NCBI GenBank assembly: GCA_964428435.1
Contig: CAYRYA010000004.1
Span: 8,116-72,115 of the forward strand
Origin: an uncultured Candidatus Saccharibacteria bacterium
Lineage (GTDB): Bacteria; Patescibacteriota; Minisyncoccia; Phycocordibacterales; DATDWN01
Direction of reading: 5' to 3'
Length of the DNA stretch: 64,000 nt
Shown: positions 12,150 through 34,061 of the stretch, one piece after another
Position numbering within the stretch: position 1 is the first letter of the stretch
Layout of the letters: each line of letters starts with the position of its first letter
The notes under the pieces: model-generated
Told to the model about the DNA's origin: nothing
Seen by the model: the letters and a program-made list of their open reading frames with translations, nothing else
The model's database searches: none
Program-made: the position numbers and the translations under genes

Positions 12150-12248
12150 ATATTCATATACGAATATACGAATTGGATACTTACGAATGGATGCGAATGA
12201 ATTTATTCGTAACAATTCGTAGATGTGTATTATTCGTTAATTCGTATG
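12150..12248. repeat. TACGAAT/ATTCGTA palindromic intergenic element, copy 1 of 3
   Basis: Imperfect ~100-bp inverted repeat built from ACGAAT units on the left arm and ATTCG units on the right; near-identical copies at 14339-14462 and 18193-18325. Confidence 0.7.
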
Positions 12249-12832
12249 TTTAATTTATCCATTATCTCCTTATTCACCTCTTCAATCGTCTGCTCTCCGT
12301 TAATATCAAGCACTGTGTATCCCGGATTATCTCTAAAATACTCGATTGCTGAAACCACTTCTGTATCAAACCACTCTAACCTTTTTTTGATTTCTGACAA
12401 CTCATCATCAGACCGTCCTCGCTCAAGAGCTCGCGCCATGGACCACTCATTTGATGTGTTAATAATAATCACCACAACATTTTTTCGTTTGTAAAACTGT
12501 AATGCAGTATCGAGAATTGGTGATTCGTACCGACGACGACAGAGGCCGTCAAACACCAAATGCTCATCTCCTGTAAAATTCTCTACAAGAAAGCTCGTCC
12601 AGAGCCATACAGGCATAAACGGAGGCATCAGTCCTCCTGTCTCCATCACTTCTTTTGTGAGTCGAGCTGAATGGTTATCTTGGACAATAAAATCACGAAG
12701 CTTTTGCCCAGTCTCAAGATAGAGGCATTTACGACCCTCATCGTGAGTTTTTAAATACTCCATAAGAAGCTGTGCTTGTGTACCCTTTCCTGAACCCGCT
12801 CTTCCAAACAATACTATGGTTTGTGGTGTCAT
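12230..12832 (-). CDS. adk: adenylate kinase
   Basis: 200 aa; Walker A GRAGSGKGTQAQLL, NMP/LID regions; C-terminal codons overlap the repeat element. Confidence 0.9.
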   Translation of the reverse strand: MTPQTIVLFGRAGSGKGTQAQLLMEYLKTHDEGRKCLYLETGQKLRDFIVQDNHSARLTKEVMETGGLMPPFMPVWLWTSFLVENFTGDEHLVFDGLCRRRYESPILDTALQFYKRKNVVVIIINTSNEWSMARALERGRSDDELSEIKKRLEWFDTEVVSAIEYFRDNPGYTVLDINGEQTIEEVNKEIMDKLNIRINE

Positions 12833-12843
12833 GGCTATAGTAT

Positions 12844-12878
12844 AGTCGAAAGTCCATAAAGTCGAAAGCCCATAAAGC
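12844..12878. repeat. 9-bp-periodic GACTT/AAGTC array upstream of adk
   Basis: agtcgaaagtccataaagtcgaaagcccataaagc; member of a dispersed family (see findings). Confidence 0.55.
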
Positions 12879-13066
12879 TAAATACACAAAATCCCCTATT
12901 TCTAGGGGATTTTGTGTTTTGAGAAACTTTATTTAACCACGGACTTGAGTCGTTCAGATTTGAGGGTAGTTCTAGGCGGAAAGTGAAAAATATTTGTAGA
13001 CGTACTCGTTGTACGATGGAAAATATTTTTTGCTTTCCAACAACGAAATACCCCAAATGTGGACGA

Positions 13067-14338
13067 CTAGTACTCGCGAATAGAGACTTGGGCGTCGATT
13101 TTTTTGATCAGATCGATAACTACAGAAACCGCAATCAAGAGTGCCGTACCCCCCACTGAAATAGCAGTGATACCAGTCACACCTCGAATAATAAGCGGAA
13201 GAACTGCGATCACCCCGAGGAAGAGCGCACCGACAAGAGTCAGTCGTGTGAGTGTTTTTGCAATATGATCAGAGGTAGGGCTACCTGGACGTACACCGGG
13301 AATAAATGCTCCGTTTTTCTGAAGATTTTTTGAGATCTGATCTGGATCAAAGGTTACTGCTGTATAGAAGTATGTGAAGATAAACACAAGGAAGAAATAT
13401 GCGATTGCATACACCCATGAGTTTGAGATAAATGTATTCATTGCAGTTGCTACATTTTTAATTGCAGGATAATCAACATTTGCAAGGAATTGAGATATGA
13501 TTTGCGGGAACAACAATATTGCTGATCCGAAGATAATTGGCATAACACCAGCCTGGTTCATACGTAATGGAAGATAGGTAGATGTACCACCGTACACTTT
13601 CATGCCTCGTACTTGTTTTGCATATGTCACAGGAATTGGTCGTTCTGCCTCAGTGACCACTACAACAAGAACCACTACAACAAGAGCGATAATTGCAAAG
13701 AGTGCGTAGAGTGGAAGTTGCGCTGGATCAAATACGTATATAAGTTGAGAGAGAGCCATTGGAAGCTGAGATACGATACCTGCAAAAATAATCAATGACA
13801 CACCATTTCCAATACCATATTCAGTGATCAATTCACCAATCCACATCAACAACATTGAACCTGCAGTAATAACCGCAAGATTAACCATCAAGTCAAATGA
13901 TAACATTGATGCAATAACATTTTGAGACTCAAGAAGTTTAATCAAACTAAATCCTTGGATAAGTGCAAAAGGTATTGCAAGCATACGTCCATACTGAGCA
14001 AACTTTCGACGACCAGCATCCCCTTCTTCCTGATACATTTCTTTCAGACGTGAAGACATAACTGTGAGCAACTGCATAATAATAGATCCTGTGATATATG
14101 GACCAACACCAAGCATTACAATAGAAAGCTGTGAAAGACCACCTCCAGAGAACAAGTTAAGGAGTCCGAGAAATTCACTATTTGCAAACAAAGAAGCAAG
14201 TGCAGATTCATCTACACCAGGAATAGGGATGATAGCAAGAAAACGAAACACAACAAGTGCCCCAAGTGTAAACAAAATTCGTGTACGAAGTGCCTTGTCT
14301 TGTAATACGAGCCCGAATTTATAGAAAAAGTTTTTCAT
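13067..14338 (-). CDS. secY: preprotein translocase subunit SecY
   Basis: 423 aa, 10 TM helices, conserved SecY N-terminus and plug region. Confidence 0.95.
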   Translation of the reverse strand: MKNFFYKFGLVLQDKALRTRILFTLGALVVFRFLAIIPIPGVDESALASLFANSEFLGLLNLFSGGGLSQLSIVMLGVGPYITGSIIMQLLTVMSSRLKEMYQEEGDAGRRKFAQYGRMLAIPFALIQGFSLIKLLESQNVIASMLSFDLMVNLAVITAGSMLLMWIGELITEYGIGNGVSLIIFAGIVSQLPMALSQLIYVFDPAQLPLYALFAIIALVVVVLVVVVTEAERPIPVTYAKQVRGMKVYGGTSTYLPLRMNQAGVMPIIFGSAILLFPQIISQFLANVDYPAIKNVATAMNTFISNSWVYAIAYFFLVFIFTYFYTAVTFDPDQISKNLQKNGAFIPGVRPGSPTSDHIAKTLTRLTLVGALFLGVIAVLPLIIRGVTGITAISVGGTALLIAVSVVIDLIKKIDAQVSIREY

Positions 14339-14462
14339 GAAATTAATATACGAATATGCGAATATGCGAATTATGCGAATCTACGAATTAATACGAATGA
14401 ATGCTTTTGAATTTGTCTTATTCGTGGCAATTCGTAAGTTTTTCATTCGTATATTCGTATGT
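14339..14462. repeat. TACGAAT/ATTCGTA palindromic intergenic element, copy 2
   Basis: atacgaatatgcgaatatgcgaatt...attcgtggcaattcgtaag...attcgtatattcgtatg between secY and rplO. Confidence 0.7.
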
Positions 14463-14903
14463 CTATACTACCACTTTACCACCAATTGCCTCAATTTTGG
14501 CCTTAGCAGAAAGAGAGAGTGCGCATCCAGACACAGTAACTTTTTTAGTTATCTCACCAGTTGAAAGAATTTTTACCAAAGGTTTTTTACCGTACACTGT
14601 TGTAATTACCCCTTTTGCAACGAGAGTTGCTGGAGTTACTTTATCTCCATTTGAAAATGCATTAGAAATAGAACCAAGTGTAACTGGAACATATGCGTTC
14701 TGGATTGATGTGTTGATATTTACACCTCGTCCTCGAAGTTTAGGAACTCGTTTAATAAAATCTCGAAGTTCTGGTCTCTTTTTGTGACCTGCTCGAGCAT
14801 TCTGTCCTTTTGTTCCACGACCAGCCGTTTTAGCCTTCACCCCTCCTCGGCCGATTTGTCGTGACTTCTTATTTTTATGTGTTCGTTTAAGTGTATGTAA
14901 CAT
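14463..14903 (-). CDS. rplO: 50S ribosomal protein L15
   Basis: 146 aa; MLHTLKRTHKNKKSRQIGRGGVKAKTAGRGTKGQ typical L15 N-terminus. Confidence 0.9.
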   Translation of the reverse strand: MLHTLKRTHKNKKSRQIGRGGVKAKTAGRGTKGQNARAGHKKRPELRDFIKRVPKLRGRGVNINTSIQNAYVPVTLGSISNAFSNGDKVTPATLVAKGVITTVYGKKPLVKILSTGEITKKVTVSGCALSLSAKAKIEAIGGKVVV

Positions 14904-14912
14904 GGTAGTGTA

Positions 14913-15464
14913 TTATTTTGCTCGAAGTTGTGACAATGCCTTAATCGCAGCCTTTGCATTGTTTACTTTATTTTTACTTCGTGAAAAAAGTTTTGAACCA
15001 ACTTCTTTTACTCCCGCAAGCTCAAGTACTGTACGTACAGATGAACCTGCAAGAATTCCCTTTCCCGGTGCTCGCATGATAGACACCTGTGATCCAGAAA
15101 ACTTTGCAAACACCTCATGAGGAATTGAGTGATTCTTTGTAAGAGGAATCTTGATCATATTTTTCTTTGCATCACGTGCAGCTTTGTCGATTGCAAGTGG
15201 AGTATCAGTTGCTTTTCCTTGTCCTACTCCTACCTTACCTTTTCGATCACCTACAACAACAGCAACAGAAAAACTGAAACGTCGTCCTCCAGTTACCACT
15301 CGAGTTACACGTCGAATACTGATGATTTTTTGATCAAATTCTGGTTTTACCCGAGGCTCTCGAGAATCTCTTCGATCACGATTTGGTTTTCGTGCGCCTC
15401 GCTTATCTTTTGATGCATCAGCTACTGGAGCAGTCTGCGTATGTGATTTAATTTCTTCTGTCAT
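14913..15464 (-). CDS. rpsE: 30S ribosomal protein S5
   Basis: 183 aa; S5 dsRBD and C-terminal domain (RVTRVVTGGRRFSFSVAVVVGD...); immediately followed by rplO with no room for rpmD (L30). Confidence 0.9.
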   Translation of the reverse strand: MTEEIKSHTQTAPVADASKDKRGARKPNRDRRDSREPRVKPEFDQKIISIRRVTRVVTGGRRFSFSVAVVVGDRKGKVGVGQGKATDTPLAIDKAARDAKKNMIKIPLTKNHSIPHEVFAKFSGSQVSIMRAPGKGILAGSSVRTVLELAGVKEVGSKLFSRSKNKVNNAKAAIKALSQLRAK

Positions 15465-15475
15465 ACAAATGTATA

Positions 15476-15826
15476 TTAAAATATTAGTCCACCTTCACGA
15501 GCACCTTCTGCAACAGCTTTAATATTTCCTGTGTAGATAAAACCTCCTCGGTCAAACACAACAGTCTCAATATTTTTTGCTTTTGCTTTTGTAGCAATCT
15601 CACGACCAATAGCAAACGCCTTCTCAGAAAGAGTTTTACCTTTTACTGTTTTTGTGTGTGCAGAAACAAGCGTCATTCCTTTTGAATCGTCAATAAGCTG
15701 TGCTGTCACATGCTGATTTGACTTAAATACTGCCAATCGAGGACGAGCTTCTGTACCAGAAACTTTCGCTCTGATTCTGAGCTTTCGTCTGATTCGCTGT
15801 GTAGTTTTTGAAATATTTTTATTCAT
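15476..15826 (-). CDS. rplR: 50S ribosomal protein L18
   Basis: 116 aa; [29 protein letters not shown] typical L18. Confidence 0.9.
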
Positions 15827-15831
15827 AAAAA

Positions 15832-15922
15832 TTTTTAGATTAATGATTTTGGATTTTTGATTAATGAATGGGATTTTTCTTATTCTTTAATCTTTAATCT
15901 TTAATCTTGCTTCCTTAATCTT
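15832..15922. repeat. GATTAATGA...TTAATC 5'-UTR element (family 2), full copy
   Basis: gattaatgattttggatttttgattaatgaatgggatttttcttattctttaatctttaatctttaatctt between rplF and rplR. Confidence 0.7.
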
Positions 15923-15927
15923 GACCT

Positions 15928-16461
15928 TTACGCGGATTTCTTACCTTGCTTACGCTTGATCACTTCACCTTCATATCGAAGACCTTTACCTTTGTATGGC
16001 TCTGGTTTTTTCCAATCTCGAACCATTGCAGCAAATGCTCCCACCTCTTCTGTGTTTATTCCAGAAATAGTAATAACATTTTTCTCAGCTGTCACTTTTA
16101 GAGACGCAGGAATATCAATATGTACTGGATGTGAAAACCCAAGAGCAAGTACAAGCTGTGTACCTTTTACTTCAGATTTGTATCCGATACCTTCTAGAAT
16201 AAGTTTTTTAACAAATGGTGTATGCACACCTTTGATCATATTGGTAATATGTGACCCATATGTTCCCCACAATGCTCTATTTGCAATTGTTTCTTTTAAT
16301 GGTGCAAGAGTGATTGTTTCTGGAGTAATAGTAAGTGCAACCTGATCAGAAAAGTGTTTTGACAATGTACCCTGAGGACCTTTTACAGTGAAAAGACCTG
16401 AAGTAAATGTAACTTCTGTTCCCTTCGGTATGGTAATTATTTTTTTTCCTATACGTGACAT
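15928..16461 (-). CDS. rplF: 50S ribosomal protein L6
   Basis: 177 aa; MSRIGKKIITIPKGTEVTF typical L6. Confidence 0.9.
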   Translation of the reverse strand: MSRIGKKIITIPKGTEVTFTSGLFTVKGPQGTLSKHFSDQVALTITPETITLAPLKETIANRALWGTYGSHITNMIKGVHTPFVKKLILEGIGYKSEVKGTQLVLALGFSHPVHIDIPASLKVTAEKNVITISGINTEEVGAFAAMVRDWKKPEPYKGKGLRYEGEVIKRKQGKKSA

Positions 16462-16467
16462 GTTTTT

Positions 16468-16545
16468 TTGGATTAATGATTTTGGATTCTTGATTAATGA
16501 ATGGGATTTCTCTTATTCTTTAATCTTTAATCCTTAATCTTGTTT
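16468..16545. repeat. family 2 5'-UTR element, full copy
   Basis: ggattaatgattttggattcttgattaatgaatgggatttctcttattctttaatctttaatccttaatcttg between rpsH and rplF. Confidence 0.7.
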
Positions 16546-16551
16546 CTTACT

Positions 16552-16983
16552 CTACCAGAGTGTACATAACGCTTCTCCTCCGACCTTTTCTTTTCGAGCA
16601 ACCTCATCAGAAATCACTCCTTTTGGAGTTGATATAACCATAATACCGTAACCATTTTTTACTGGTCTGATTTCAGTTGCTTTGATATATACTCGCTTTG
16701 AACTTTTTGAAACTCGCTTTACTCCTCGAATCTTTGGTGATCCGTCTGATTCGTATGCAAGTGTTACCTCAATATACTTAATTACTTTTTTTCCTTTCTT
16801 TGTGGCACCTTTAATGAACCCTGCTTTTGCAAGTACATCAAGAATTGCCATCTTAAGTTTAGAGTACGACAACACAACAGTTTCCTTGCGGACCTGTCCT
16901 GCGTTGTATATCTCATTAATCATTGCTGCAATTGGATCTGTCATATTATTTCGTTGGGAGTATTTCAGGCCAAGAGGGCCCAA
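16552..16983 (-). CDS. rpsH: 30S ribosomal protein S8
   Basis: S8 signature (TDPIAAMINEIYNAGQVRKETV...). Confidence 0.9.
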   Translation of the reverse strand: MGPLGLKYSQRNNMTDPIAAMINEIYNAGQVRKETVVLSYSKLKMAILDVLAKAGFIKGATKKGKKVIKYIEVTLAYESDGSPKIRGVKRVSKSSKRVYIKATEIRPVKNGYGIMVISTPKGVISDEVARKEKVGGEALCTLW

Positions 16984-16986
16984 AAC

Positions 16987-17172
16987 TTACCACGATGATT
17001 TTTTAATTCCAGGGATTTTCCCTTCGTTGGCAAGTTCGCGGAAGCAGATACGGCAGAGATCAAAATCTCTCATATATCCATGCTTTCGACCACATCGAAA
17101 ACATCGGTTTACCTTCTTTGTAGTAAACTTAGCTTTCTTTAATGATCGTGCGATTACTGATGTTTTTGCCAT
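16987..17172 (-). CDS. rpsZ: 30S ribosomal protein S14 type Z (zinc-binding)
   Basis: 61 aa; [23 protein letters not shown] with CxxC...CxxC. Confidence 0.9.
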
Positions 17173-17226
17173 TGTTATTAATTTATACGAGCCTCATCCT
17201 AACAGGAAGTGCGGCCCAAGTCAAAC

Positions 17227-17799
17227 TTATTTTCTTTTAATTACCTTCACTTTTGGATACCCCTCATCCTTCTTAAATGGGAAACCAAGATGAGTAAGGA
17301 ACGCTTTTGTCTCAAGTGGGTTTGAAATATTTGTACCTACGGTTACCGCAAGTCCAAATACATCTTTAAGTTCCTCGTCTGCTGACTCAGGAAAAATAGT
17401 GTTTTCTTTAATCCCAAGAGTATAGTTACCCATTTCATCGATACCTTTTGCAGAGATACCACGGAAGTCTTTTGTTCGAGGAAGTGCAATATTTACAAGT
17501 CGTTCAAGGAAATCATACATTCGCTTCCCTCGGAGAGTAATCTGAATACCTACAGTGTCTCCTTGTCGAACCTTAAACGCAGCAACTGACTGTTTTGCGC
17601 CCTTTTTTACAGGTTTCTGTCCAGTAATATCAGCAAGTCTACTGTATGCATGCTCTATTTTTTTCTTATCTTTAAAAGATCCCACTCCAGCAGAAACAAC
17701 CACCTTTAAAATTTTTGGTGCCTGCATAGCATTTTTATACCCAAACTCCCCTTTGAGAGCTCCGTATGCTTTTTCTACTTTGTCTTTAATGTGTTCCAT
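17227..17799 (-). CDS. rplE: 50S ribosomal protein L5
   Basis: 190 aa; L5 conserved core (GDTVGIQITLRGKRMYDFLERLVNIALPR). Confidence 0.9.
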   Translation of the reverse strand: MEHIKDKVEKAYGALKGEFGYKNAMQAPKILKVVVSAGVGSFKDKKKIEHAYSRLADITGQKPVKKGAKQSVAAFKVRQGDTVGIQITLRGKRMYDFLERLVNIALPRTKDFRGISAKGIDEMGNYTLGIKENTIFPESADEELKDVFGLAVTVGTNISNPLETKAFLTHLGFPFKKDEGYPKVKVIKRK

Positions 17800-17808
17800 G
17801 TTATTTTT

Positions 17809-17886
17809 TTGGATTAATGATTTAAGATTTTGGATTAATGAATGGGATTTTTCTTATTCTTTAATCTTTAATCCTGATTCTTTAAT
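17809..17886. repeat. family 2 5'-UTR element, full copy
   Basis: ggattaatgatttaagattttggattaatgaatgggatttttcttattctttaatctttaatcctgattctttaatc between rplX and rplE. Confidence 0.7.
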
Positions 17887-18192
17887 CTATACTGTGTTTC
17901 CTGATTTCTGTGCCACTCGAACCTTTTTTCCGTCTATCACTTTCTTTGAGATTCGTGTACCTTTACCTGTCTTCGGATCTACAAGAAGGACGTTTGAGGC
18001 ATGTATAGGGAGATTTTTTTCAATAATCTGACCTTTTTCACCACCACGACGCGCTCGAACATGAGCTTTAACCACATTTACACCTGACACAAGCACTTTT
18101 CCTTCACGAGGAAGCACCCGAGCAATTGTACCTGTTTTGCCCTTATCTTTTCCTGTAATCACTATTACTTTGTCGTCTTTCTTAAGTTTCAT
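17887..18192 (-). CDS. rplX: 50S ribosomal protein L24
   Basis: 101 aa; KOW motif MKLKKDDKVIVITGKDKGKTG. Confidence 0.9.
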   Translation of the reverse strand: MKLKKDDKVIVITGKDKGKTGTIARVLPREGKVLVSGVNVVKAHVRARRGGEKGQIIEKNLPIHASNVLLVDPKTGKGTRISKKVIDGKKVRVAQKSGNTV

Positions 18193-18325
18193 TTGTTTTT
18201 ATATGATTTATGCTTTGATACGAATATACGAATTGGAAACTTACGAATAGATTCGAATGAATGCTTTTAATTTCTTATTCGTAACCATTCGCATCATTCG
18301 TACATTCGCATATTCGTATGTTCAT
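18193..18325. repeat. TACGAAT/ATTCGTA palindromic intergenic element, copy 3
   Basis: gatacgaatatacgaattggaaacttacgaatagattcgaatgaatg...attcgtaaccattcgcatcattcgtacattcgcatattcgtatg between rplN and rplX. Confidence 0.7.
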
Positions 18326-18697
18326 CTATACCACCTCTGGGGCGAGTGAGATAATCTTCTGATACCCCGCTTCTCCGATCTCTCGGGGGATTGGTCCAAA
18401 CACACGACCAGCTACTGGTTCCTTCTTTTCTTTTGAAACAATAACTACTGCATTCTCATCAAATCGAATATATGAACCATCCTTTCTTCGAAATGGAGCC
18501 TTTTGTCGAACCACTACAGCATAGAGCACGTCTTTCTTTTTTGCTCCTTTTCGTGGTTCTGCTTTTTGAACAGAAAGAACAACCATCTCTCCCAATCGTG
18601 CATATCGCTTCTTTGAACTTCCAAGTACTTTGAAAATTCGTCCGATTTTTGCTCCGGTGTTATCTGCGATTTTAACAATTGATTGTGGCTGGATCAT
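18326..18697 (-). CDS. rplN: 50S ribosomal protein L14
   Basis: 123 aa; MIQPQSIVKIADNTGAK typical L14. Confidence 0.9.
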   Translation of the reverse strand: MIQPQSIVKIADNTGAKIGRIFKVLGSSKKRYARLGEMVVLSVQKAEPRKGAKKKDVLYAVVVRQKAPFRRKDGSYIRFDENAVVIVSKEKKEPVAGRVFGPIPREIGEAGYQKIISLAPEVV

Positions 18698-18703
18698 ATA
18701 ATT

Positions 18704-18973
18704 TTATTTAGTTACAACAACAAAATGCTTATCTTTTGAAATTGGTCGAGTTTCTTTAATCTCTACTTTATCCCCTACTTTATGAGCATTTCCTACATCA
18801 TGAGCTTTGAAACGCTTACTGATTTGCATGAATTTACCATACTTTGGATGCTTTACAAATCGGTTTACGAGTACTACCACAGTATCTTTCATTTTGTCAG
18901 ATACAACAATACCAGTAAGGATTCGTCCTTGTTCTGATTTCTCTGTATGTGGTTGTATTTTTTTTGTTGCCAT
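18704..18973 (-). CDS. rpsQ: 30S ribosomal protein S17
   Basis: 89 aa; GIVVSDKMKDTVVVLVNRFVKHPKYGKF typical S17. Confidence 0.9.
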   Translation of the reverse strand: MATKKIQPHTEKSEQGRILTGIVVSDKMKDTVVVLVNRFVKHPKYGKFMQISKRFKAHDVGNAHKVGDKVEIKETRPISKDKHFVVVTK

Positions 18974-18975
18974 AC

Positions 18976-19159
18976 TATTTATTTTACGTTAATTGCAGTC
19001 AAAATTCGTGCGATATCCTTTCGGATTGCATATCCTTCTTTTATATTTTTAACCTTACTACCAGCAACAGAAAAACGAAAATTTCGAAGTGCCACTCGTT
19101 TTTCACCGAGAAGAGCTTTAAGTTCTTTTTCTGTTTTATTTTTAAAATCTTTCATAACT
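18976..19159 (-). CDS. rpmC: 50S ribosomal protein L29 (not in supplied ORF track because <60 aa)
   Basis: Own translation of minus strand: MKDFKNKTEKELKALLGEKRVALRNFRFSVAGSKVKNIKEGYAIRKDIARILTAINVK, 59 aa, in the expected rplP-rpmC-rpsQ position. Confidence 0.75.
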
Positions 19160-19164
19160 CTATA

Positions 19165-19581
19165 TTATCGTGCTACTACTTTAGATTTAATAGGAAGTTT
19201 TGTTCCCGCCTTTCGAAGTGCCTCTTTTGCAATCGCTTCAGTAACACCATCAATTTCAAAAATGATTCGTCCTGGGAGCACTGGAGCAACATATGCAAAC
19301 AAATCTCCTTTTCCTTTACCGAGTTTTACTTCGGCTGGTTTTCGAGTAATTGGCATATCAGGGAAAATTCGAATCCACACTTTTCCAGTTTTACCCATTG
19401 CTCGTGAAAGCACCTTTCGAGCAGCTTCAATCTGATTTGATCGAATACGTGCATCAGTAGTTGCTTTAAGCCCAAATGAACCAAACGCAAGTGTTGCGCC
19501 ACGTGTCGCTGTACCAATACGAGACGTATTTCGTCTCATGGTATGCCATTTTCTGTATTTTACTTTTTTAGGTAGCAACAT
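19165..19581 (-). CDS. rplP: 50S ribosomal protein L16
   Basis: 138 aa; MLLPKKVKYRKWHTMRRNTSRIGTATRG typical L16. Confidence 0.9.
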   Translation of the reverse strand: MLLPKKVKYRKWHTMRRNTSRIGTATRGATLAFGSFGLKATTDARIRSNQIEAARKVLSRAMGKTGKVWIRIFPDMPITRKPAEVKLGKGKGDLFAYVAPVLPGRIIFEIDGVTEAIAKEALRKAGTKLPIKSKVVAR

Positions 19582-19591
19582 ATACGTTTAG

Positions 19592-20248
19592 TTATTTAGC
19601 AAAGATTTCTCCCTTGTAAATCCACACTTTGATACCGATCGCTCCGTATGGAAGACGTGCAGGATATGCTGCATAATCTACATCAGCTCGAAGAGTTTGA
19701 AGTGGAATTCGACCTTTTTTCATTTTTTCCTGTCGCGCCATTGACGCACCTCCTAGACGACCTGAGAGTTCAATTTTCACTCCGAGTACATCTCGGTTCG
19801 CCATTACTTTTTCAATAATCTGCTTCCCTACTCGTCGGAAAGGCATACGTTTTTCAAGACCTTCTGCAATCATGTGTGCCACAATTGTTGCATTTGTTTC
19901 TGGAGATTTTACCTCTTTGATGTCGATTTTTACTTCACCACCTGACACAAGATTTTTCTTAGCCATGAATGCCAAAATTTCATCTCGAAGTTTTGTTGCA
20001 CCTTCACCTGATCGTCCGATGATAGCACCTGGTCGTGAAGTTTCGATAATAATTCGAAGCGCTTTTTCACTTCGTTCCATTTGGATGTCAGCTACATACT
20101 GACCTCGCATTTTTTTCTCAAGAAATTCACGAATCAACACATCACTCTTCAAGAATTCTTTGAATTTAGTTTTCACGCCAAACCATCGAGATTTCCAATC
20201 TCTAATGATTCCAAGTCTATGTGAATATGGGTGTACTGTGTGTGACAT
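19592..20248 (-). CDS. rpsC: 30S ribosomal protein S3
   Basis: 218 aa; KH domain and S3 C-terminal domain. Confidence 0.9.
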   Translation of the reverse strand: MSHTVHPYSHRLGIIRDWKSRWFGVKTKFKEFLKSDVLIREFLEKKMRGQYVADIQMERSEKALRIIIETSRPGAIIGRSGEGATKLRDEILAFMAKKNLVSGGEVKIDIKEVKSPETNATIVAHMIAEGLEKRMPFRRVGKQIIEKVMANRDVLGVKIELSGRLGGASMARQEKMKKGRIPLQTLRADVDYAAYPARLPYGAIGIKVWIYKGEIFAK

Positions 20249-20333
20249 GTTTGTTAATTGAAAGTTTAAAAATCAAAATTTAAAATATTTTCTCCTACTG
20301 TATTCTTAATTTTTAAATTTTGATTTGTCATTT

Positions 20334-20750
20334 TTATTTTTGCTTTTTTACTTTTGATTTAACTTCTTTTGCCTCTGCTTTTTCCTCCATTACTACCTTA
20401 GTCTTCTTTGCTTTTGGAAGTACTTCCTCGAGAGTAACAGAGATCATACTTGTTCGCTTTCGGATAGGGTGAGCTGATCCTCGAGCTGCAGGCATTCGTC
20501 GGTACAGAGTTTTGCCACTGTTTACTTCCACAGTTTTTACAACCAAGTTTTCTGTAGGCATTGATTGTGCTTTTGCGTTTGCAAGAGCTGATTCGATGAG
20601 CTTTCGGATCGGAGCTGAAGCTCGTTTCTCAGTAAACTGCATTGAAAGAATAGCGTCAGTTACCTTTTTACCACGCACAAGGTCAGCAACTACACGAACT
20701 TTTCGTGGAGACTGTCGAAGATTTGAAAGTGTAGCGGATGCTTTTGCCAT
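20334..20750 (-). CDS. rplV: 50S ribosomal protein L22
   Basis: 138 aa; L22 core plus K/E-rich C-terminal tail. Confidence 0.9.
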   Translation of the reverse strand: MAKASATLSNLRQSPRKVRVVADLVRGKKVTDAILSMQFTEKRASAPIRKLIESALANAKAQSMPTENLVVKTVEVNSGKTLYRRMPAARGSAHPIRKRTSMISVTLEEVLPKAKKTKVVMEEKAEAKEVKSKVKKQK

Positions 20751-20759
20751 GGTATTAGA

Positions 20760-21104
20760 TTATTTTTTCTTAGCGTCAGGAGCTGCTTTAGATGCTTTTG
20801 CAGCAGCAATTTCAGACTCTTTCTTTTTAATTTCGAGCTCTTTCTGCATTTTACCTCCGTGTTTAAGGAATTTCTTTGTAGGAGAAAATTCGCCCAATCG
20901 GTGACCTACCATATCTTCAGTTACGAGAACTTCAATATGAGTCTTGCCGTTATGTACACCAAAGTTGAATCCTACCATTTCAGGCGAGATTACACATGCT
21001 CGTGACCATGTTTTAATAACCCCAGTTTCAATAGGTTTTTTACCCTCAATCTTTTTGAGAACTCGTGGGTCTACATATGGTCCTTTGTGTGATGATCGTG
21101 TCAT
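20760..21104 (-). CDS. rpsS: 30S ribosomal protein S19
   Basis: 114 aa; [19 protein letters not shown]...NGKTHIEV typical S19, with K/A-rich C-terminal extension. Confidence 0.9.
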
Positions 21105-21234
21105 GAAAAATTGATGAAAAATACTCTTTATTTTGCAAGAGTGTTAAATACCCTAAACAAAAACGAGATGCAAGAGGAAAACTCTTACGTGCGCTCTATA
21201 CTATACAAAATGCGACGATATGTCAAACGGATTA

Positions 21235-21275
21235 GAGTCCATCAAGTCAAAAGTCCTTAAAGTCTGTAAAGTCGG
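21235..21275. repeat. 9-bp-periodic GACTT/AAGTC array immediately upstream of rpsS promoter
   Basis: gagtccatcaagtcaaaagtccttaaagtctgtaaagtcgg; on the minus strand followed by TTGACA-N15-TATAGTATA. Confidence 0.55.
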
Positions 21276-21362
21276 ATATTTAAGGGTAATTTTGGGCAAA
21301 ATTAAAGAGCGACCCATCCCCGCAATGGAGACTGTCGCTCTTACAGAAAACTGATTTTTCAT

Positions 21363-21713
21363 CTAGTGATAGTGAGTTACCCCTGGAAAATTCCCAGTAT
21401 TTACCCTTCTCCATTCCGAGAACCCCATCAACCAGCTTCCGTCAGGTTCACAATCCTTATAAACCTGTTCCATCTCACAGAGCTTACAGTACCTGAAATG
21501 TTGGAGGATGGGAGCACCACCGTATTCATTCCGATGTTTTTCAGTACAATACCTGAGACTGAACCTCTTGCAGTCGAGACAGAAGTACCTGCTAGACCCA
21601 AAAATAACACCAATCACAGAATAAGTTATGTACCCCCCTAAGCTCATTGATACAAGGAACCCAAACAGTACATACACTAAAAGCGCTAACTTAACTACAA
21701 AACCTTTCAACAT
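21363..21713 (-). CDS. small membrane-anchored Cys-rich protein, hypothetical (inserted between rplB and rpsS)
   Basis: 116 aa; two N-terminal hydrophobic helices then CLDC...C...CKLC...C; own TTGACA-like promoter after the rplB terminator and its own downstream hairpin. Confidence 0.45.
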   Translation of the reverse strand: MLKGFVVKLALLVYVLFGFLVSMSLGGYITYSVIGVIFGSSRYFCLDCKRFSLRYCTEKHRNEYGGAPILQHFRYCKLCEMEQVYKDCEPDGSWLMGFSEWRRVNTGNFPGVTHYH

Positions 21714-21756
21714 GTCACTCTCCTGGTGATTAAGCTACCACACAAAGTATTATTGT

Positions 21757-21797
21757 CAAAAAACACCCCTATCTTTTTATAAGGGGTGCTTTTTGTT
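21757..21797 (-). terminator. terminator immediately after rplB
   Basis: GCACCCCTTATAAAAAGATAGGGGTGTTTTTTG on minus strand, 1 nt after rplB stop. Confidence 0.6.
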
Positions 21798-22640: not shown

Positions 22641-22736
22641 AAATGTAAAATTGAAATCTCAAAAATAAAAATGTTGTATGCTTAATTTTTTAACTCTGCT
22701 TTGTCATTTTTCATTTTCATTTTTGATTTTTGATTT

Positions 22737-23018
22737 TTAAATGACTTCTATCGTCTCACCTTTCTTAAGGTATACATATGCTTTCTTAAGACCTTTTTTG
22801 AAACCAACTTTTCCTCGTACAAATACTTTTTTCTGAGGGTTAGTCACCGTAGTCACCTTTACAGGAGATACTTTGTAGATTTCTTTTACTGCTTTGATCA
22901 CATCTGTCTTTGTTGCGTGTTTTGGAATCTCAAATGTATACACTGAAGACTCTGACTTAAGCGCAGCTTTTTCTGTGATTCGTGGTCGCAATAATACTGT
23001 TTTAAGGTCTGCTTTCAT
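22737..23018 (-). CDS. rplW: 50S ribosomal protein L23
   Basis: 93 aa; L23 pattern. Confidence 0.85.
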   Translation of the reverse strand: MKADLKTVLLRPRITEKAALKSESSVYTFEIPKHATKTDVIKAVKEIYKVSPVKVTTVTNPQKKVFVRGKVGFKKGLKKAYVYLKKGETIEVI

Positions 23019-23027
23019 ATTATTTTA

Positions 23028-23690
23028 TTATGCAAGTTTAGAGCTAACTGTTGCGAGAGACTCTGCTGGATTCTCGATCACAATGTATTTATATTTCATC
23101 AAATCAACAGGGTTGATATTTCGGATTTCATCTACTTCAACATTACTGAAGTTACCAAAACTCTTCTTTGTAGTTACACTGTCTTTTGAAAGCGCAATCC
23201 ATGCCGAATTTTTCTTTTTAGAAAGAATGTCTGTAAAACCACCAATTTTTGAGAATGATGCAAGTGTTCCTTTTGCATCTTTTGCTTTTGGAGCAGAGAA
23301 ATTCAAAGAGTCTACAAAAAGGATTTGTCCTTTCTTAAATTTAGCTGAAAGGATAGTATACAAAGCTTTTGCCTTCATTTTCTTGTTTACCTTTCGAGTA
23401 TAGTCTTTTTCGTTTCGAGGACCATGAGTTACACCTCCACCTACCCAGATAGGAGATCGAGTAGAACCGTGTCGAGCGCGACCTGTTCCCTTTTGTTTCC
23501 AAGGTTTCTTTCCACCTCCAGATACTTCCCCTCGGTTTTTAGTGTGAGCTACTGGTGTTCGAGCACTTGATTCCATAGATACAACAACCTGGTGAACCAA
23601 GTCAGCATTCCACTTAAGACCAAACACGCTCTCTGGGAGAGTTATTGTTCCTGCTGTTTTACCTGTTTGTGTGTAAATATTTGCTTCCAT
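23028..23690 (-). CDS. rplD: 50S ribosomal protein L4
   Basis: Start set at MEANIYTQTGK; the longer ORF N-terminus (MPNATDFTDLKDW...) is a translation of the GACTT repeat array. Confidence 0.85.
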   Translation of the reverse strand: MEANIYTQTGKTAGTITLPESVFGLKWNADLVHQVVVSMESSARTPVAHTKNRGEVSGGGKKPWKQKGTGRARHGSTRSPIWVGGGVTHGPRNEKDYTRKVNKKMKAKALYTILSAKFKKGQILFVDSLNFSAPKAKDAKGTLASFSKIGGFTDILSKKKNSAWIALSKDSVTTKKSFGNFSNVEVDEIRNINPVDLMKYKYIVIENPAESLATVSSKLA

Positions 23691-23702
23691 GATTTTAAAA
23701 TT

Positions 23703-23797
23703 AGTCATAAAGTCTATCCAGTCCTTCAAGTCCGTAAAGTCGGTTGCGTTTGGCATCTGACTTGATGGACTTTCAACTTTATGAACTTTTGACTTCT
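23703..23797. repeat. inverted pair of 9-bp-periodic GACTT/AAGTC arrays between rplC and rplD
   Basis: cataaagtctatccagtccttcaagtccgtaaagtcgg ... ctgacttgatggactttcaactttatgaacttttgacttc; the two halves are mutual reverse complements. Confidence 0.6.
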
Positions 23798-24465
23798 ACT
23801 AGTGTCCCTCGGCGTCCTGCGACAGCACCTCGAATAAAGATTTCTCCTGCTTCCGCATCGATACCTGCAATAGTAAGACCGCCTGTAGTGATGCGATCAC
23901 CACCTGTTCGTCCTGCCATTCGCTTTCCTTTTGCTACACGTCCTCCGTCTCTTCCTCCACCTCCAAGAGATCCTGGTTCTCGCTCTGAGTGTTTCTGTCC
24001 GTGTGATCGAGGTCCTCCGTGGAAACCATGTCGCTTAACACCCCCCTGGAAACCTTTTCCTTTTGAGATAGAAGATACAGTAACTCCGTCTCCTGCAGCA
24101 AATGTAGAGATATCGATAATATCACCTACTTTGTATTCACCCCCTTCAATTCGGAATTCTTTGATATGAGCAAATGAACCGAGTTCTTTTACATGACCTT
24201 TTACAGCCTTTGAGATATTTTTTGGATTTCGAGAACCAAAACCTACCTGCACAGCAGTATAACCATCCTTTGAGAGGTTCTTAACTTGAGTGATTACATT
24301 AGGACTTGTTTTGATAACAGTCACTGGATGCACAATACCCTGCTCATCGAAGATCTGGGTCATATTCTGTTTTGTTCCAAGGATGAATTTCATATGATTG
24401 TATTGATTTTGAAGACATTTTTCGGACAGTAATGAGAAAAGTTTTTTCTCAACATTGCCCATCAC
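23779..24465 (-). CDS. rplC: 50S ribosomal protein L3
   Basis: 228 aa; L3 conserved core. Confidence 0.9.
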   Translation of the reverse strand: MMGNVEKKLFSLLSEKCLQNQYNHMKFILGTKQNMTQIFDEQGIVHPVTVIKTSPNVITQVKNLSKDGYTAVQVGFGSRNPKNISKAVKGHVKELGSFAHIKEFRIEGGEYKVGDIIDISTFAAGDGVTVSSISKGKGFQGGVKRHGFHGGPRSHGQKHSEREPGSLGGGGRDGGRVAKGKRMAGRTGGDRITTGGLTIAGIDAEAGEIFIRGAVAGRRGTLVEVKSS

Positions 24466-24612
24466 TAGTCCTCATAAAAAATAGCCTAAATGGCGATTTG
24501 GCAATACTAGCAGATAATGATTTTTATTTCAAGAGGGCTCAAAGAAATTACCAAGTCTGTACTCAGACGACTATAATTTCTGAGTGCCGTCAGCCTGTAC
24601 CCATCTCCCGTT

Positions 24613-24660
24613 GACGGCTATAAACAAAAAGAGGCTTGCAGATGCAAGCCTCTTCGAAAC
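24613..24660 (-). terminator. terminator after small inserted gene
   Basis: AAGAGGCTTGCATCTGCAAGCCTCTTTTTGTTT on minus strand. Confidence 0.6.
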
Positions 24661-24671
24661 AACACTTTCAC

Positions 24672-24914
24672 TTATACGGGACACTTCTGCCCCGTCAAAT
24701 ACCCTCCTCCGAGAGCCCAGCCAGCAGGGGTGAGCTGGACAATACCTCTACACTTGCAACCAGGTTTTTGACACACCCCCATATGGCTGTTTACCCCAGG
24801 TCTGAATTCATTTGGGACAGTTTTCCAGTCACCAATCTGGTGACCCAACCCGGCAGACAACTCTTCAACTTTCTTGCGCCGCCTTATTTCATTTTCGTTC
24901 AAGGGTTTTTCCAT
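24672..24914 (-). CDS. small Cys-containing hypothetical protein inserted between rpsJ and rplC
   Basis: 80 aa from MEKPLNENEIRRRKK...; GGTAGGAGG RBS 5 nt upstream; TTCAAA-16-TATATA promoter; follows rpsJ terminator; C-x4-C-x-C...C cluster. Confidence 0.4.
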   Translation of the reverse strand: MEKPLNENEIRRRKKVEELSAGLGHQIGDWKTVPNEFRPGVNSHMGVCQKPGCKCRGIVQLTPAGWALGGGYLTGQKCPV

Positions 24915-24960
24915 ATCGCCTCCTACCACCTATATAAGCACATATTTCTTTATTTGAAAA

Positions 24961-24993
24961 CAAAAACCACCCTTTCGGGCGGTTTTTGTTTAC
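24961..24993 (-). terminator. terminator immediately after rpsJ
   Basis: AAACAAAAACCGCCCGAAAGGGTGGTTTTTGTTTT on minus strand. Confidence 0.6.
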
Positions 24994-25015
24994 TTTTGAC
25001 TTTACGGACTTTTGA

Positions 25016-25381
25016 CTAAATTATCTTTACATCGATATTAACACCAGATGGAAGAGAGAGATTTGTGAGTGATTCCATAATCTTTGGAGTCGGGTTCAAA
25101 ATATCAATCAATCGCTTATGAGTTCTCATTTCAAACTGCTCTCGAGCGTTTTTATACACAAACGAAGCTCGGTTTACTGTGTATTTCTTGATCTCAGTTG
25201 GAAGCGGGATTGGACCCAAAACCTTTGCATCGTATCGAAGAGCAGTATCCATGATCTGTCGTACTGAGATATCGAGTACTTTGTACTCATATGCTCGTAC
25301 TCGGATTCGCAATTTAGAAATCGCGTCCTCTTTTGCAGCTTTTTTAGGAGCTTTTTTTGTTGTTGTTTCTTTCGTTGCCAT
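25016..25381 (-). CDS. rpsJ: 30S ribosomal protein S10
   Basis: S10 core (KLRIRVRAYEYKVLD...) with short K/A-rich N-terminal extension; start at MATKETTTKK. Confidence 0.9.
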   Translation of the reverse strand: MATKETTTKKAPKKAAKEDAISKLRIRVRAYEYKVLDISVRQIMDTALRYDAKVLGPIPLPTEIKKYTVNRASFVYKNAREQFEMRTHKRLIDILNPTPKIMESLTNLSLPSGVNIDVKII

Positions 25382-25468
25382 TACGGAGTAGCTTACCAAA
25401 CATTTAATAATATGGCAAGTGAAACGAGAAACCCGCGGGAAGCATTTGGCTTCCTGCGGGTCTGCATC

Positions 25469-25672: not shown

Positions 25673-25728
25673 ATTCGCTTAAGGTCCTTTCCAAAATACA
25701 AAATACTACCTTTATAAACTTTGTCAAT

Positions 25729-25757: not shown

Positions 25758-25836
25758 ATTTGAGTTTACTTTAGACAATCACACTCTGAGGATTTTTCGC
25801 TCAGGTCGCGGATAAAATTGGAAAAAGGATCGGAGA

Positions 25837-25890: not shown

Positions 25891-25914
25891 GAAAAAGACC
25901 AGAGCAGACTTACT

Positions 25915-34060: not shown

Positions 34061-34061
34061 T

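Follow-up and report, generated by a model that had tools for sequence, protein, structure and literature searches.

The str-S10-spc supercluster of translation genes described here lies on the minus strand between 10.7 and 35.0 kb of a 64-kb stretch of contig CAYRYA010000004.1; this whole stretch is called the window. The cluster keeps the universal gene order, lacks rpmD (ribosomal protein L30) and is, in our reading, organised as about a dozen short units rather than as three long operons; we put the probability of this reading at roughly 70%. Sigma-70-type promoters would head the units and fall into two groups: a leaderless kind, with the -10 box 6-8 nt before the ATG (rpsL, a giant open reading frame (ORF) of 1111 amino acids (aa), rpsJ, adk and possibly secY), and a leadered kind (fusA, tuf, rplC and rpsS), in which a short leader opens with a small hairpin and a U-tract. 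For most units, the end would be an intrinsic terminator consisting of an A-tract, a GC stem and a U-tract, initiation and termination both being predicted from sequence. The stretch from a terminator to the next promoter would serve as an insulated slot in which cargo could be gained, lost and exchanged, namely small, fast-evolving genes such as orf85, orf116 and perhaps orf67, and the giant ORF with orf95. Ten further junctions, which would ancestrally have measured 4-17 nt, now hold 80-133-nt repeats.

Gene content and order

All cluster genes are read from the minus strand in the order rpsL-rpsG-fusA-(1111-aa ORF, orf95)-tuf-rpsJ-rplCDWB-rpsS...rplO-secY-adk-map, followed by ndk. Within it, NCBIfam models identify the S10-spc part as rpsJ-rplCDWB-rpsS-rplV-rpsC-rplP-rpmC-rpsQ-rplNXE-rpsNH-rplFR-rpsE-rplO-secY. 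Every named gene matches an NCBIfam or Pfam model, and the canonical content and order claimed by an earlier note on this DNA (the original prediction) thus hold throughout; rpsN is of type Z. The scores of rpsE and rplO fall slightly under the NCBIfam curated cut-offs, and rplW and adk (E-values of 1e-19 to 1e-22) also stay below theirs; the remaining cluster genes reach or exceed them. The genes are located as follows.

34618..35043, minus: rpsL (S12), TIGR00981, 177 bits
34062..34532, minus: rpsG (S7), TIGR01029, 192 bits
31235..33376, minus: fusA (EF-G), TIGR00484, 1069 bits
25915..27111, minus: tuf (EF-Tu), NF009372, 698 bits
25016-25381, minus: rpsJ, NF001861
21798..24393, minus: rplC-rplD-rplW-rplB unit, NCBIfam
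17227..21104, minus: rpsS-rplV-rpsC-rplP-rpmC-rpsQ-rplN-rplX-rplE, NCBIfam
14463..17172, minus: rpsN-rpsH-rplF-rplR-rpsE-rplO, NCBIfam/Pfam
13067-14338, minus: secY, TIGR00967
12230-12832, minus: adk
11382-12149, minus: map
10729-11334, minus: ndk

The spacer between rpsE and rplO, which the original prediction had put 10 bp apart, is 9 nt long (14904-14912) and too short for rpmD; its median length in 24 relatives is 10 nt. Searches by tblastn with four L30 proteins gave no match anywhere in the window (best E-value 0.9) and none in 55 Patescibacteria loci, while the same queries detected the gene between rpsE and rplO in eight loci from outside the candidate phyla radiation (CPR). Absence of L30 from all CPR bacteria has been published (PMC5220378); its absence from the canonical site and from the 64 kb searched is confirmed here and is not new. 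Its use as a CPR hallmark also agrees with the position of the host. When L2 was compared with one genome per species, the top 55 matches were all Patescibacteria-type metagenome-assembled genomes (MAGs) at 80-64% identity, the best being a Zambryskiibacteriota MAG (80%), and several carried generic or Saccharibacteria labels. By sequence similarity, the host genome is a Zambryskibacteria-like member of the Paceibacteria (CPR/Patescibacteria).

Terminator-like hairpins inside the cluster

Terminators were assessed by folding each site (free energy, dG, in kcal/mol) and by comparing hairpins with shuffled sequence. At least 11 terminator-like hairpins stand on the sense strand, with stems of 9-17 bp, dG of -14 to -24 kcal/mol and an A-tract and a U-tract on their flanks. 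Between 10.5 and 35.1 kb, the sense strand holds 17 perfect hairpins whose stems reach 10 bp or more, against 4.4 ± 2.2 in 100 dinucleotide shuffles (maximum 11); ten of the 17 have stems of 12 bp or longer, and each of these ten lies between genes. A terminator scan returned 28 terminator-like sites where 14.2 ± 3.6 were expected. The predicted terminators are listed here.

34028-34061, minus: rpsG terminator, 13-bp stem, dG -16.1, 0 nt after the stop codon, member of repeat family D6
33813-33848, minus: bidirectional terminator hairpin in the rpsG/fusA spacer, 15-bp stem, dG -16.7
30966-31006, minus: fusA-downstream terminator, 17-bp stem, dG -18.7, 228 nt past the fusA stop codon, beyond repeat elements
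25725-25755, minus: tuf terminator, dG -14.2, ~160 nt past the stop codon, beyond a repeat element; kept in L081 and L082
25421-25463, minus: orf67 terminator hairpin
24956-24991, minus: rpsJ terminator, dG -22.0, 24 nt after the stop codon; kept in five relatives
24620-24656, minus: orf85 terminator
21755-21794, minus: rplB terminator, dG -17.5, 3 nt after the stop codon; present in L081 and L082 with a different loop
21297-21342, minus: orf116 terminator-like hairpin, dG -22.1
12874-12918, minus: secY terminator, dG -24.2
10512-10551, minus: ndk terminator

These 11 predicted sites place a GC-containing stem-loop and a U-tract 3' of a stop codon, and the terminators are conserved, with changes in loop and stem, in the close relatives L081, L082, L084, L085 and L087. 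Rather than two uninterrupted operons, the S10-spc part has terminator-like hairpins after rpsJ, rplB and secY, and carries the inserted genes orf85 and orf116. All five hairpins of the original prediction (after rplB, rpsJ, tuf, fusA and rpsG) were recovered, with six further ones. Their placement immediately after a stop codon applies to rpsG and rplB and roughly to rpsJ; the tuf and fusA hairpins stand well downstream, at the distances listed above. The terminators of rpsG, tuf and rpsJ belong to one repeat family (AAAACCACCC-GAAA-GGGTGGTTTT), and its copies could act as recombination substrates.

Predicted promoters and leaderless starts

Promoter candidates upstream of the units are listed here; those of rpsS, rpsJ, rplC and fusA combine -35 and -10 hexamers of the sigma-70 type (spacers of 16-18 nt) with a position that is conserved among relatives.

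35052-35080, minus: rpsL candidate promoter TTGCAT-N17-TAGAGT, 8 nt 5' of the ATG
33481-33509, minus: fusA promoter TTGCCC-N17-TATAGT; leader with small hairpin and U-tract (region 33435..33509); block ~100% conserved in L084, L085 and L086
5' end of 27574..30921, minus: leaderless-type promoter of the giant ORF, TACAAT-GTACAC-ATG
27212..27270, minus: tuf promoter TTGACT-N17-TATATT with leader hairpin (ATCGC/GCGAT) and U-rich tract; module also found before tuf in six relatives
25390-25418, minus: rpsJ promoter TTGCCA-N17-TAAGCT, 8 nt 5' of the ATG; identical in L081 and L082
24504-24532, minus: rplC promoter TTGAAA-N17-(TGC)TAGTAT (region 24394..24532); conserved in L081, L082, L001 and L002
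21198-21226, minus: rpsS promoter TTGACA-N17-TAGTAT, within control region 21105..21271
21234-21271, minus: GACTT repeats of the rpsS control region, of the type called FamD below
17196..17224, minus: internal promoter TTGACT-N17-(TGT)TAGGAT in the 54-nt rplE/rpsN spacer; conserved in L081 and L082
12830-12847, minus: adk, TATACT-ATAGCC-ATG, with GACTTT repeats also upstream

The promoters reported earlier before rpsS and adk are both among them. The rpsS promoter was compared across 48 loci, made up of 45 from other Patescibacteria besides those of the window and two close relatives: 39 carry a near-consensus sigma-70 promoter upstream of this gene, scoring 9-10 of 12 positions (8 of 12 in one case) and usually with an extended TG. 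At a synonymous divergence (dS) of 0.16-0.6, the promoter blocks of rpsJ, rplC, rpsS and fusA are ~100% conserved, whereas the flanking cargo cannot be aligned.

Of 57 window genes, 7 have a strong -10 hexamer exactly 6 nt 5' of their start codon, where 0.28 would be expected per offset. Three of the seven belong to the cluster (the giant ORF, adk and secY) and four lie outside it; rpsJ and rpsL resemble this type, with 8 nt from the -10 box to the ATG. A Shine-Dalgarno sequence is missing from most genes but present before orf85 (GGAGG) and orf116 (AGGAG). The fixed offset supports leaderless transcripts as a predicted feature of this genome, in keeping with what had been suggested for adk and the giant ORF.

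Insertion slots and their cargo

The original prediction noted extra ORFs at tuf/rpsJ (orf67), rpsJ/rplC (orf85) and rplB/rpsS (orf116), and all three are present; it had missed that the str unit is interrupted as well, by the 1111-aa ORF and orf95 between fusA and tuf. To place these insertions, we compared about 45 Paceibacteria loci; here as elsewhere the relatives are mostly MAG or Logan contigs. Four junctions are expanded.

rpsG/fusA gap: median 518 nt; above 1 kb in 1 of 21 loci, above 300 nt in 11 of 21
fusA/tuf gap: median 1540 nt; above 1 kb in 18 of 29 loci
rplB/rpsS gap: median 880 nt, up to 9.7 kb; above 1 kb in 21 of 44 loci
rplE/rpsN gap: median 255 nt; above 1 kb in 11 of 29 loci

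Other junctions have medians of 3-16 nt, except tuf/rpsJ (34), rpsJ/rplC (45), adk/map (55) and secY/adk (127). The four junctions listed are lineage-wide insertion hot spots across most Paceibacteria. Two further breakpoints of the window are genus-specific: its tuf/rpsJ gap is 533 nt, and only 1 of 44 relatives exceeds 300 nt there; its rpsJ/rplC gap is 622 nt, a junction above 300 nt in only 6 of 45 relatives.

Close relatives, retrieved with orf116, orf85 and the exact rpsJ protein, have L2 proteins 96-100% identical to that of the window and differ from it by a dS of 0.16 (L086), 0.35 (L084) or 0.5-0.6 (L081, L082, L085 and L087). Complete or near-complete assemblies exist for L084 (GCA_964426735.1) and L086 (GCA_964627615.1), and close relatives are also present in the public runs SRR12901024, SRR26268948, SRR33557407 and SRR29729395. 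Their alignments reveal a constant arrangement of terminator, slot and promoter at tuf/rpsJ, rpsJ/rplC and rplB/rpsS: the terminator that opens each slot (tuf, rpsJ, rplB) and the promoter that closes it (rpsJ, rplC, rpsS) are nearly the same base for base, and the DNA between them is unalignable or differs in gene content. The tuf/rpsJ slot is empty in L081, L091 and L092 (227 nt) and the rpsJ/rplC slot in L085, L087, L088 and L089 (214-217 nt); elsewhere the slots carry different small ORFs, some of them antisense (L082 and L086 at tuf/rpsJ). Comparison of the same locus in related genomes, which had been proposed as a check, finds the terminator and promoter blocks kept and the cargo between them changing. 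With the lineage-wide hot spots, this argues that the cluster is probably broken into units, as originally claimed.

Across the compared gaps, 245 ORFs of at least 50 aa were found, of which 196 have no relative in any other gap. Recognisable cargo in relatives includes DgkA (eight loci), PyrD, a PyrE/PyrF fusion, pilin, L10, and MscS-like and PorV-like proteins. The window carries the following cargo.

27574-30909, minus: giant ORF (1111 aa), 156 homologous cluster representatives, no Pfam match
27283..27570, minus: orf95, weak DUF5663 match, conserved upstream of tuf in relatives
25421..25727, minus: orf67 cassette, with promoter-like TTGACA-N16-TATTTT (25700-25727), orf67 (25469-25672) and terminator hairpin
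24672-24914, minus: orf85, with GGAGG Shine-Dalgarno, own terminator and homologues at 80-96% identity
21297..21759, minus: orf116 cassette, with promoter-like TTGACA-N16-TAGCTT (21732-21759), orf116 (21363-21713) and AGGAG Shine-Dalgarno

The giant-ORF family is conserved over its C-terminal two thirds and evolves very fast, since its members are 36-87% identical where L2 is 97-100% identical. The family of orf85, small and Cys-rich, occurs in seven genomes, always beside rpsJ and on either side of it: at rpsJ/rplC in the window, L082, L084, L086 and L092, and at tuf/rpsJ in L085 and L089. A homologue of orf116 (79% identical) occupies the same position in L081. The ratio of non-synonymous to synonymous divergence (dN/dS) is 0.17 for orf116 and 0.40 for orf85, compared with 0.03 for rplB, and on these values orf85 and orf116 are, as judged by their sequence evolution, real genes. 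The gene status of orf67 is doubtful: a search of 5.8 billion proteins found no homologue, and the sole resemblance is a tblastn match of 38% identity in L084.

The small inserted ORFs might all be chance ORFs and the expanded spacers repeat-rich junk, an explanation that we consider very unlikely. It would suit orf67, the absence of Pfam, PADLOC and PHROGs matches among the small ORFs, and the several repeat families within the spacers; it would also suit orf53 (21201-21362), which we rejected as a gene in view of its overlap with the conserved rpsS promoter and with FamD repeats. It does not fit the full-length homologues of orf116 and orf85 (79-96% identical) with their dN/dS ratios, nor the Shine-Dalgarno sequences that set these two apart from their neighbours, the occurrence of the orf85 family in seven genomes and two different slots, or the 156 cluster representatives related to the giant ORF. 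A defence or phage origin of the cargo was rejected as well, there being no PADLOC or PHROGs match.

Candidate leader RNAs

In the window, fusA, tuf, rplC and rpsS are each headed by a hairpin/U-tract module. Upstream of rpsS, a 5-7-bp hairpin begins ~8 nt past the -10 box and is followed by a U-tract; the rpsS leader of the window has two such modules in tandem (21153-21192 and 21113-21145). A covariance model of this hairpin (R1; like R2 and R3 below, home-made and with rough E-values) found 46 matches in 0.9 Mb, 45 of them on the sense strand. They head rpsS (32, window included), tuf (6), rpsN (4) and fusA (1), or lie just after rplB, and the four genes so headed are exactly those downstream of the four hot spots. 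In the raw alignment, covariation in the hairpin is 0.196 against 0.141 ± 0.018; pairing holds at 78.5% of positions, a share that drops to 52% or less once the pairing is shifted along the alignment. The model-fitted alignment, which leans towards the structure, gives 0.315 against 0.159 ± 0.018, with double changes at seven of seven pairs.

We prefer to read the module as a putative transcription attenuator because it has the anatomy of an intrinsic terminator. A serious alternative, and one with a substantial chance of being right, is that the hairpin and U-tract before rpsS, tuf, rpsN, fusA and rplC act as a 5' mRNA stabiliser and a U-rich landing site for the ribosome (S1). Stem-loops at the 5' terminus protect bacterial mRNAs, and the hairpin starts within a few nt of the predicted 5' end; in L025, L029, L036 and L009 the U-tract directly abuts the ATG, and most genes here lack a Shine-Dalgarno sequence. 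What speaks for attenuation instead is that conservation covers just what an intrinsic terminator needs (a stem with GC pairs and a run of U, while the loop varies freely), that the terminator scan flags the window copy at 21170-21188, and that this subclade has two modules in tandem.

Two more leader candidates are listed here.

24400-24503, minus: rplC structured leader, three stacked helices (~75 nt), 29 pairs, 7 of them compensatory among five sequences
33544..33791, minus: GC-rich structured block of 248 nt, flanked by a terminator and by the fusA promoter; also conserved in L084 and L086

The rplC leader is confined to a subclade (the window, L081-L083, L001 and L002), beyond which model R2 found only one weak match, upstream of fusA in L011; it is a candidate ribosomal-protein autoregulatory RNA. 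Both this leader and the rpsS-type hairpin combine a conserved fold with covariation in a predicted 5' untranslated region. The 248-nt block has a GC content of 55% (about 40% for the genome) and 74 predicted pairs, many of them G.U on the minus strand. Compared among three closely related sequences, it could be a structured RNA of no known family or a long fusA leader; model R3 recovered just its three seed sequences. A coding explanation of the rpsG/fusA spacer was rejected, as tblastx found no conserved ORF and the changes in an embedded 35-aa ORF are mostly non-synonymous.

The sole Rfam match at threshold in the window is tmRNA (3148-3558), and neither 10-36 kb, searched at E-values up to 5-10, nor the rpsG/fusA spacer searched by itself gave any match that reached the gathering threshold. 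Weak Rfam matches (rimP, Leu and Phe leaders, CRISPR-DR35 and others) were dismissed as terminator-like hairpins far below threshold.

In the rpsN/rpsH spacer (16945-16986, minus), the stem of a hairpin differs wholly in sequence from its counterparts in L081 and L082, and in all three the hairpin is followed by a near-identical AATACTCCCA(A/T)CGAAA(T/C)AAT-ATG; this suggests a putative structure-conserved element before rpsH.

Hairpin repeats between cistrons

Ten junctions within units, all missed by the original prediction, measure 80-133 nt here compared with 3-16 nt in most relatives, and repeats fill them from stop to start codon. The repeats have arms made of a short core (4-6 nt) with a period of 7-8 nt, no U-tract, and an A-rich tail before the next ATG. 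Fold z-scores range from -2.3 to -7.6 for FamA and from -3.5 to -4.5 for FamB and are weaker for FamC and FamD. The elements are listed by family.

34533..34617, minus: FamA (GATTAAA/TTAATC arms) at rpsL/rpsG, fold z = -4.2
17800-17886, minus: FamA at rplX/rplE
16462-16551, minus: FamA at rpsH/rplF
15827-15927, minus: FamA at rplF/rplR
18193-18325, minus: FamB (ACGAAT/ATTCGT) at rplN/rplX
12150-12229, minus: FamB at adk/map
14339..14462, minus: FamB at rplO/secY, fold z = -4.3; spacer of 4 nt in L082 and L085
22641-22736, minus: FamC at rplW/rplB
20249-20333, minus: FamC at rplV/rpsC
23691-23778, minus: FamD (AAGTC/GACTT) at rplC/rplD
25761..25898, minus: FamE, nested-hairpin repeat between tuf stop codon and terminator, nhmmer E-value 3e-32

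Partial FamD copies lie after rpsJ (AAAGTC units, ahead of the rpsJ terminator in 24956..25015), before adk and before rpsS. Further FamE copies occur at 7843-7965 and 59335-59477 and in L001 and L082; the family is not widespread among the 80 loci compared. At rplO/secY, the right arm of FamB provides the TATATT-N6-ATG before secY.

Complementary arms, a length of 80-133 nt and 2-8 copies per family in 64 kb are traits of miniature inverted-repeat transposable elements (MITEs), as is presence or absence between close relatives: L082, L085 and L087 carry none of the ten, and their orthologous sites measure 4-17 nt (4 and 10 nt at rplC/rplD and rplW/rplB). Families also replace each other. At rpsL/rpsG, where L085 has 11 nt, L084 carries the unrelated FamG (CAGTCnn and GACTnnn arm units), which it also has at rplN/rplX, rplX/rplE, rpsH/rplF and rplF/rplR; L086 has FamA at both rplC/rplD and rplW/rplB, where the window has FamD and FamC. 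Orthologous elements of the window and L084 are 35-48% identical, compared with 63-96% for copies within one genome. All six element-bearing junctions of L084 are among the eight of the window, out of 21 comparable ones (hypergeometric P = 5e-4), and full FamA and FamG copies are in sense orientation in 13 of 13 cases. Periodic-arm or perfect-palindrome hairpins occur at various junctions in L001, L025, L037 and L054 and in none of 25 non-CPR loci; in L025 at least six junctions hold perfect, GC-rich palindromes of 20 bp, and in L054 at least five hold an AT-rich family. Scans of metagenomes with the FamA core and with the rpsS promoter-leader block gave no matches.

We propose that the repeats are MITE/REP-like elements which would be co-transcribed with their neighbours and folded back as a stem-loop, keeping the upstream stop codon near the downstream start. 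The predicted folds leave 11-31 single-stranded nt between the two codons (dot-bracket structures). Such folding would keep translation coupled although the genome lacks Shine-Dalgarno sequences; looping out of the insert would explain why insertions are tolerated, and preserved stop-start coupling would account for the A-rich tail and for the bias in orientation.

The repeats might instead be selected RNA devices, that is, processing or stability determinants, or arrays bound by a genome-specific RNA/DNA-binding protein, that set the expression ratios of adjacent ribosomal-protein genes, and not selfish elements. We consider this rather unlikely, though several findings speak for it: the uniform sense orientation of FamA and FamG, the occupation of the same junctions by unrelated families in the window and L084, an architecture (7-8-nt periodic arms, central loop and A-rich tail) that is kept where sequence is not, and the position of all five full FamA copies of the window between ribosomal-protein genes. 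Against it, L082, L085 and L087 do without them although their L2 proteins are 96-97% identical to that of the window, the median spacer in ~45 relatives is 3-16 nt, related families sit at non-ribosomal junctions (pgk/tpiA, upstream of pilB and ppa), and no candidate partner protein was found.

Genome-specific families may have come to occupy the same junctions in several ways: by independent insertion, the sites being either permissive or targeted, by conversion that replaced one family with another, or through co-evolution with a protein partner. A bolder proposal, which we hold tentatively and think unlikely as a whole, is that Paceibacteria possess an undescribed class of periodic-arm hairpins at fixed positions in ribosomal operons, with the genome-specific family swapped wholesale within a dS of 0.16-0.35. 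Replacement would then have to be site-directed, or the families would co-evolve with a factor encoded by the genome, such as a REPIN/RAYT-like partner or an RNA-binding regulator. The proposal would add a lineage-wide code of promoter, 5' hairpin and U-tract that co-regulates the units and replaces classical feedback leaders.

The elements may also affect gene boundaries. The upstream stop codon is TAG at five of seven FamA/FamB junctions (rpsL, rplN, rplX, rpsH and rplO), compared with 5 of 25 other cluster genes, and the stop codons of rplN, rplX, rpsH and rplO at the empty sites of L082 are TAA; the end of a FamA or FamB element may thus supply or alter the stop codon. The longest rplD ORF (242 aa) begins inside the FamD repeat (23691-23756), relatives place the true start at 23690 (220 aa), and the automatic gene call in L081 shows the same over-extension (243 aa).

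Related repeats are found elsewhere in the window. The infC-rpmI-rplT operon (7329-8657, plus) is also invaded, by FamE between infC and rpmI (L35, 7972-8157) and by a FamA hairpin (8160-8270) between rpmI and rplT, and TTAATC repeats (FamA right arm) lie at 11335-11381, directly 5' of the ndk ATG. FamD (AAGTC) repeats (43899-44316) flank on both sides a gene for a 23S-rRNA-intervening-sequence protein (PF05635, 43945-44292). A FamC-like hairpin fills the pgk/tpiA junction (45490-45555, minus), and the repeats are therefore not confined to ribosomal-protein operons.

Separate units or long transcripts

Several points weigh against our account of units, slots and mobile repeats. A generic promoter scan was not enriched (45 sites versus 45.7 expected in shuffles), and the promoter calls therefore rest on position and conservation. 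Some of the units may be just internal promoters, since there is no terminator in the orf95-tuf promoter interval or at rplE/rpsN. Model bacteria show partial read-through that joins neighbouring ribosomal operons. One cargo ORF, orf67, has the doubtful status described above. As to the repeats, a target-site duplication is not definable, as filled and empty sites do not align base by base, and a scan of ~62 of the some 70 window proteins, all but about eight at 53.5-64 kb, detected no transposase domain; no RAYT-like (Y1 transposase) protein turned up in the window either, though no RAYT-specific test was made. Because neither a target duplication nor a transposase was found, membership of the repeats in a MITE or REPIN family is unproven. 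Finally, their recurrence at the same junctions is as compatible with a selected function as with permissive sites.

Could the cluster be transcribed as a few long polycistronic RNAs, in which the hairpins are leaky attenuators or 3'-end stabilisers and the promoters internal boosters? Such 'operon concatenation' has been published for the ribosomal operons of Gammaproteobacteria and Bacilli (PMC8046335, PMC6735719), and it would sit well with the junctions that lack a terminator, with the single orientation of all genes and with the symmetric A- and U-tracts of several hairpins, which suggest a bidirectional design. We nevertheless judge it improbable, given that long stems (12-17 bp, dG -14 to -24) are conserved beside conserved promoters, that the cargo of the slots is sometimes antisense (L082 and L086 at tuf/rpsJ) and that each unit head has a conserved leader of its own.

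Neighbouring genes

The gene ndk follows map at the usual place of infA-rpmJ-rpsM-rpsK-rpsD-rpoA-rplQ; the alpha-operon genes do not come next. Upstream of the tmRNA gene (3148-3558, plus) and adjoining it is smpB (2337-2780, plus); tRNA genes were not found in the window, which has no rRNA either. The nusA gene lies at 53893-55167. At 8686-10053 (minus) lies a gene for a beta-CASP/metallo-beta-lactamase ribonuclease, whose best NCBIfam match is 'type VII CRISPR Cas14' (380 bits, with a cut-off of 800 bits); its predicted product most likely belongs with the housekeeping enzymes of the RNase J/CPSF type rather than with the Cas proteins.

Significance

No stretch of bacterial gene order is more conserved than str-S10-spc, which is also the backbone on which CPR phylogenies and binning are built. 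If its re-partition is real, a large radiation has rebuilt the transcription of its translation genes: the Paceibacteria cluster would be split at four fixed junctions, each piece with its own promoter and a shared hairpin/U-tract leader, and with variable genes between the pieces. There are practical consequences as well. Contigs often break at slot junctions, or their cargo there varies from strain to strain; 'spacers' conceal small real genes, namely those of the orf85 and orf116 families; and repeat hairpins lengthen junctions and produce spurious N-terminal extensions such as the 242-aa rplD call. The hairpin elements offer a tractable case of repeat turnover in very small, supposedly streamlined genomes, and three candidate cis-regulatory RNAs (the leader module, the rplC leader and the 248-nt block upstream of fusA) come from bacteria whose gene regulation is almost uncharted.

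Comparison with known systems

As in the canonical str-S10-spc(-alpha) cluster of E. coli and B. subtilis, the 27 genes of the window cluster, with rpsL first and map last, keep one order, including secY-adk-map after rplO, and a single orientation throughout. The window differs in the lack of rpmD, in predicted terminators and promoters inside str (rpsG/fusA and fusA/tuf), S10 (rpsJ/rplC and rplB/rpsS) and spc (rplE/rpsN and secY/adk), in foreign genes within operons, and in having ndk after map in place of infA-rpmJ and the alpha operon. With the ribosomal gene complement of CPR bacteria (PMC5220378) there is no difference on the L30 point; rpsE and rplO adjoin without L30 here and in every Patescibacteria relative examined.

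In Gammaproteobacteria and Bacilli, ribosomal operons are concatenated and insertions fall mainly between operons (Brandis, 2021, PMC8046335; Brandis et al., 2019, PMC6735719). A few unrelated genes in a syntenic cluster of translation genes, and synteny that is relaxed at the insertion points, are common to both cases. Whereas insertions there are rare and mostly lie between operons (rpoBC/str and str/S10), those described here fall within the classical operons, recur at four junctions in most of ~45 genomes, and carry cargo that is hypervariable even at a dS of 0.16-0.6.

The leader of the E. coli S10 operon contains an attenuator at which termination depends on L4 and NusA (Fu et al., 2013, PMC3616713). 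The hairpin and U-tract in the leader of a ribosomal-protein unit resemble it, as does the occurrence of a separate structured leader, here before rplC. In contrast to the S10 leader, the module precedes rpsS, tuf, rpsN and fusA and not rpsJ; it is a 5-7-bp hairpin near the 5' end, common to several units and without an Rfam family, and protein binding is putative.

Leaderless mRNAs of Actinobacteria and Deinococcus (PMC3898074, PMC4633059) likewise have a fixed short distance from -10 box to start codon and no Shine-Dalgarno sequence. Here, the host is a CPR bacterium, and the predicted leaderless genes are mixed with leadered units in one ribosomal cluster. The literature searched, an incomplete collection, does not mention leaderless genes or MITE/REP elements in CPR bacteria, nor did it yield an account of the re-partitioned operons or of the intercistronic repeats.

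REP/BIME of E. coli, Correia elements of Neisseria, RUP/BOX of Streptococcus and RPE of Rickettsia are small palindromic repeats or MITEs that lie between genes. Like these, the window repeats measure 80-130 nt, form hairpins, are multicopy and intergenic, would be co-transcribed with the flanking genes, come and go between close relatives, and belong to genome-specific families. They differ in their 7-8-nt periodic arms, strict sense orientation and occupation of whole stop-to-start spacers in ribosomal-protein operons; moreover, their families replace each other at the same junction, and no target duplication or partner transposase was found. Set beside all these systems, the loss of L30 and, in other bacteria, insertions between operons were known, whereas the recurrent hypervariable slots within operons, the lineage-wide leaders and the turnover-prone repeats are, against the literature searched, new.

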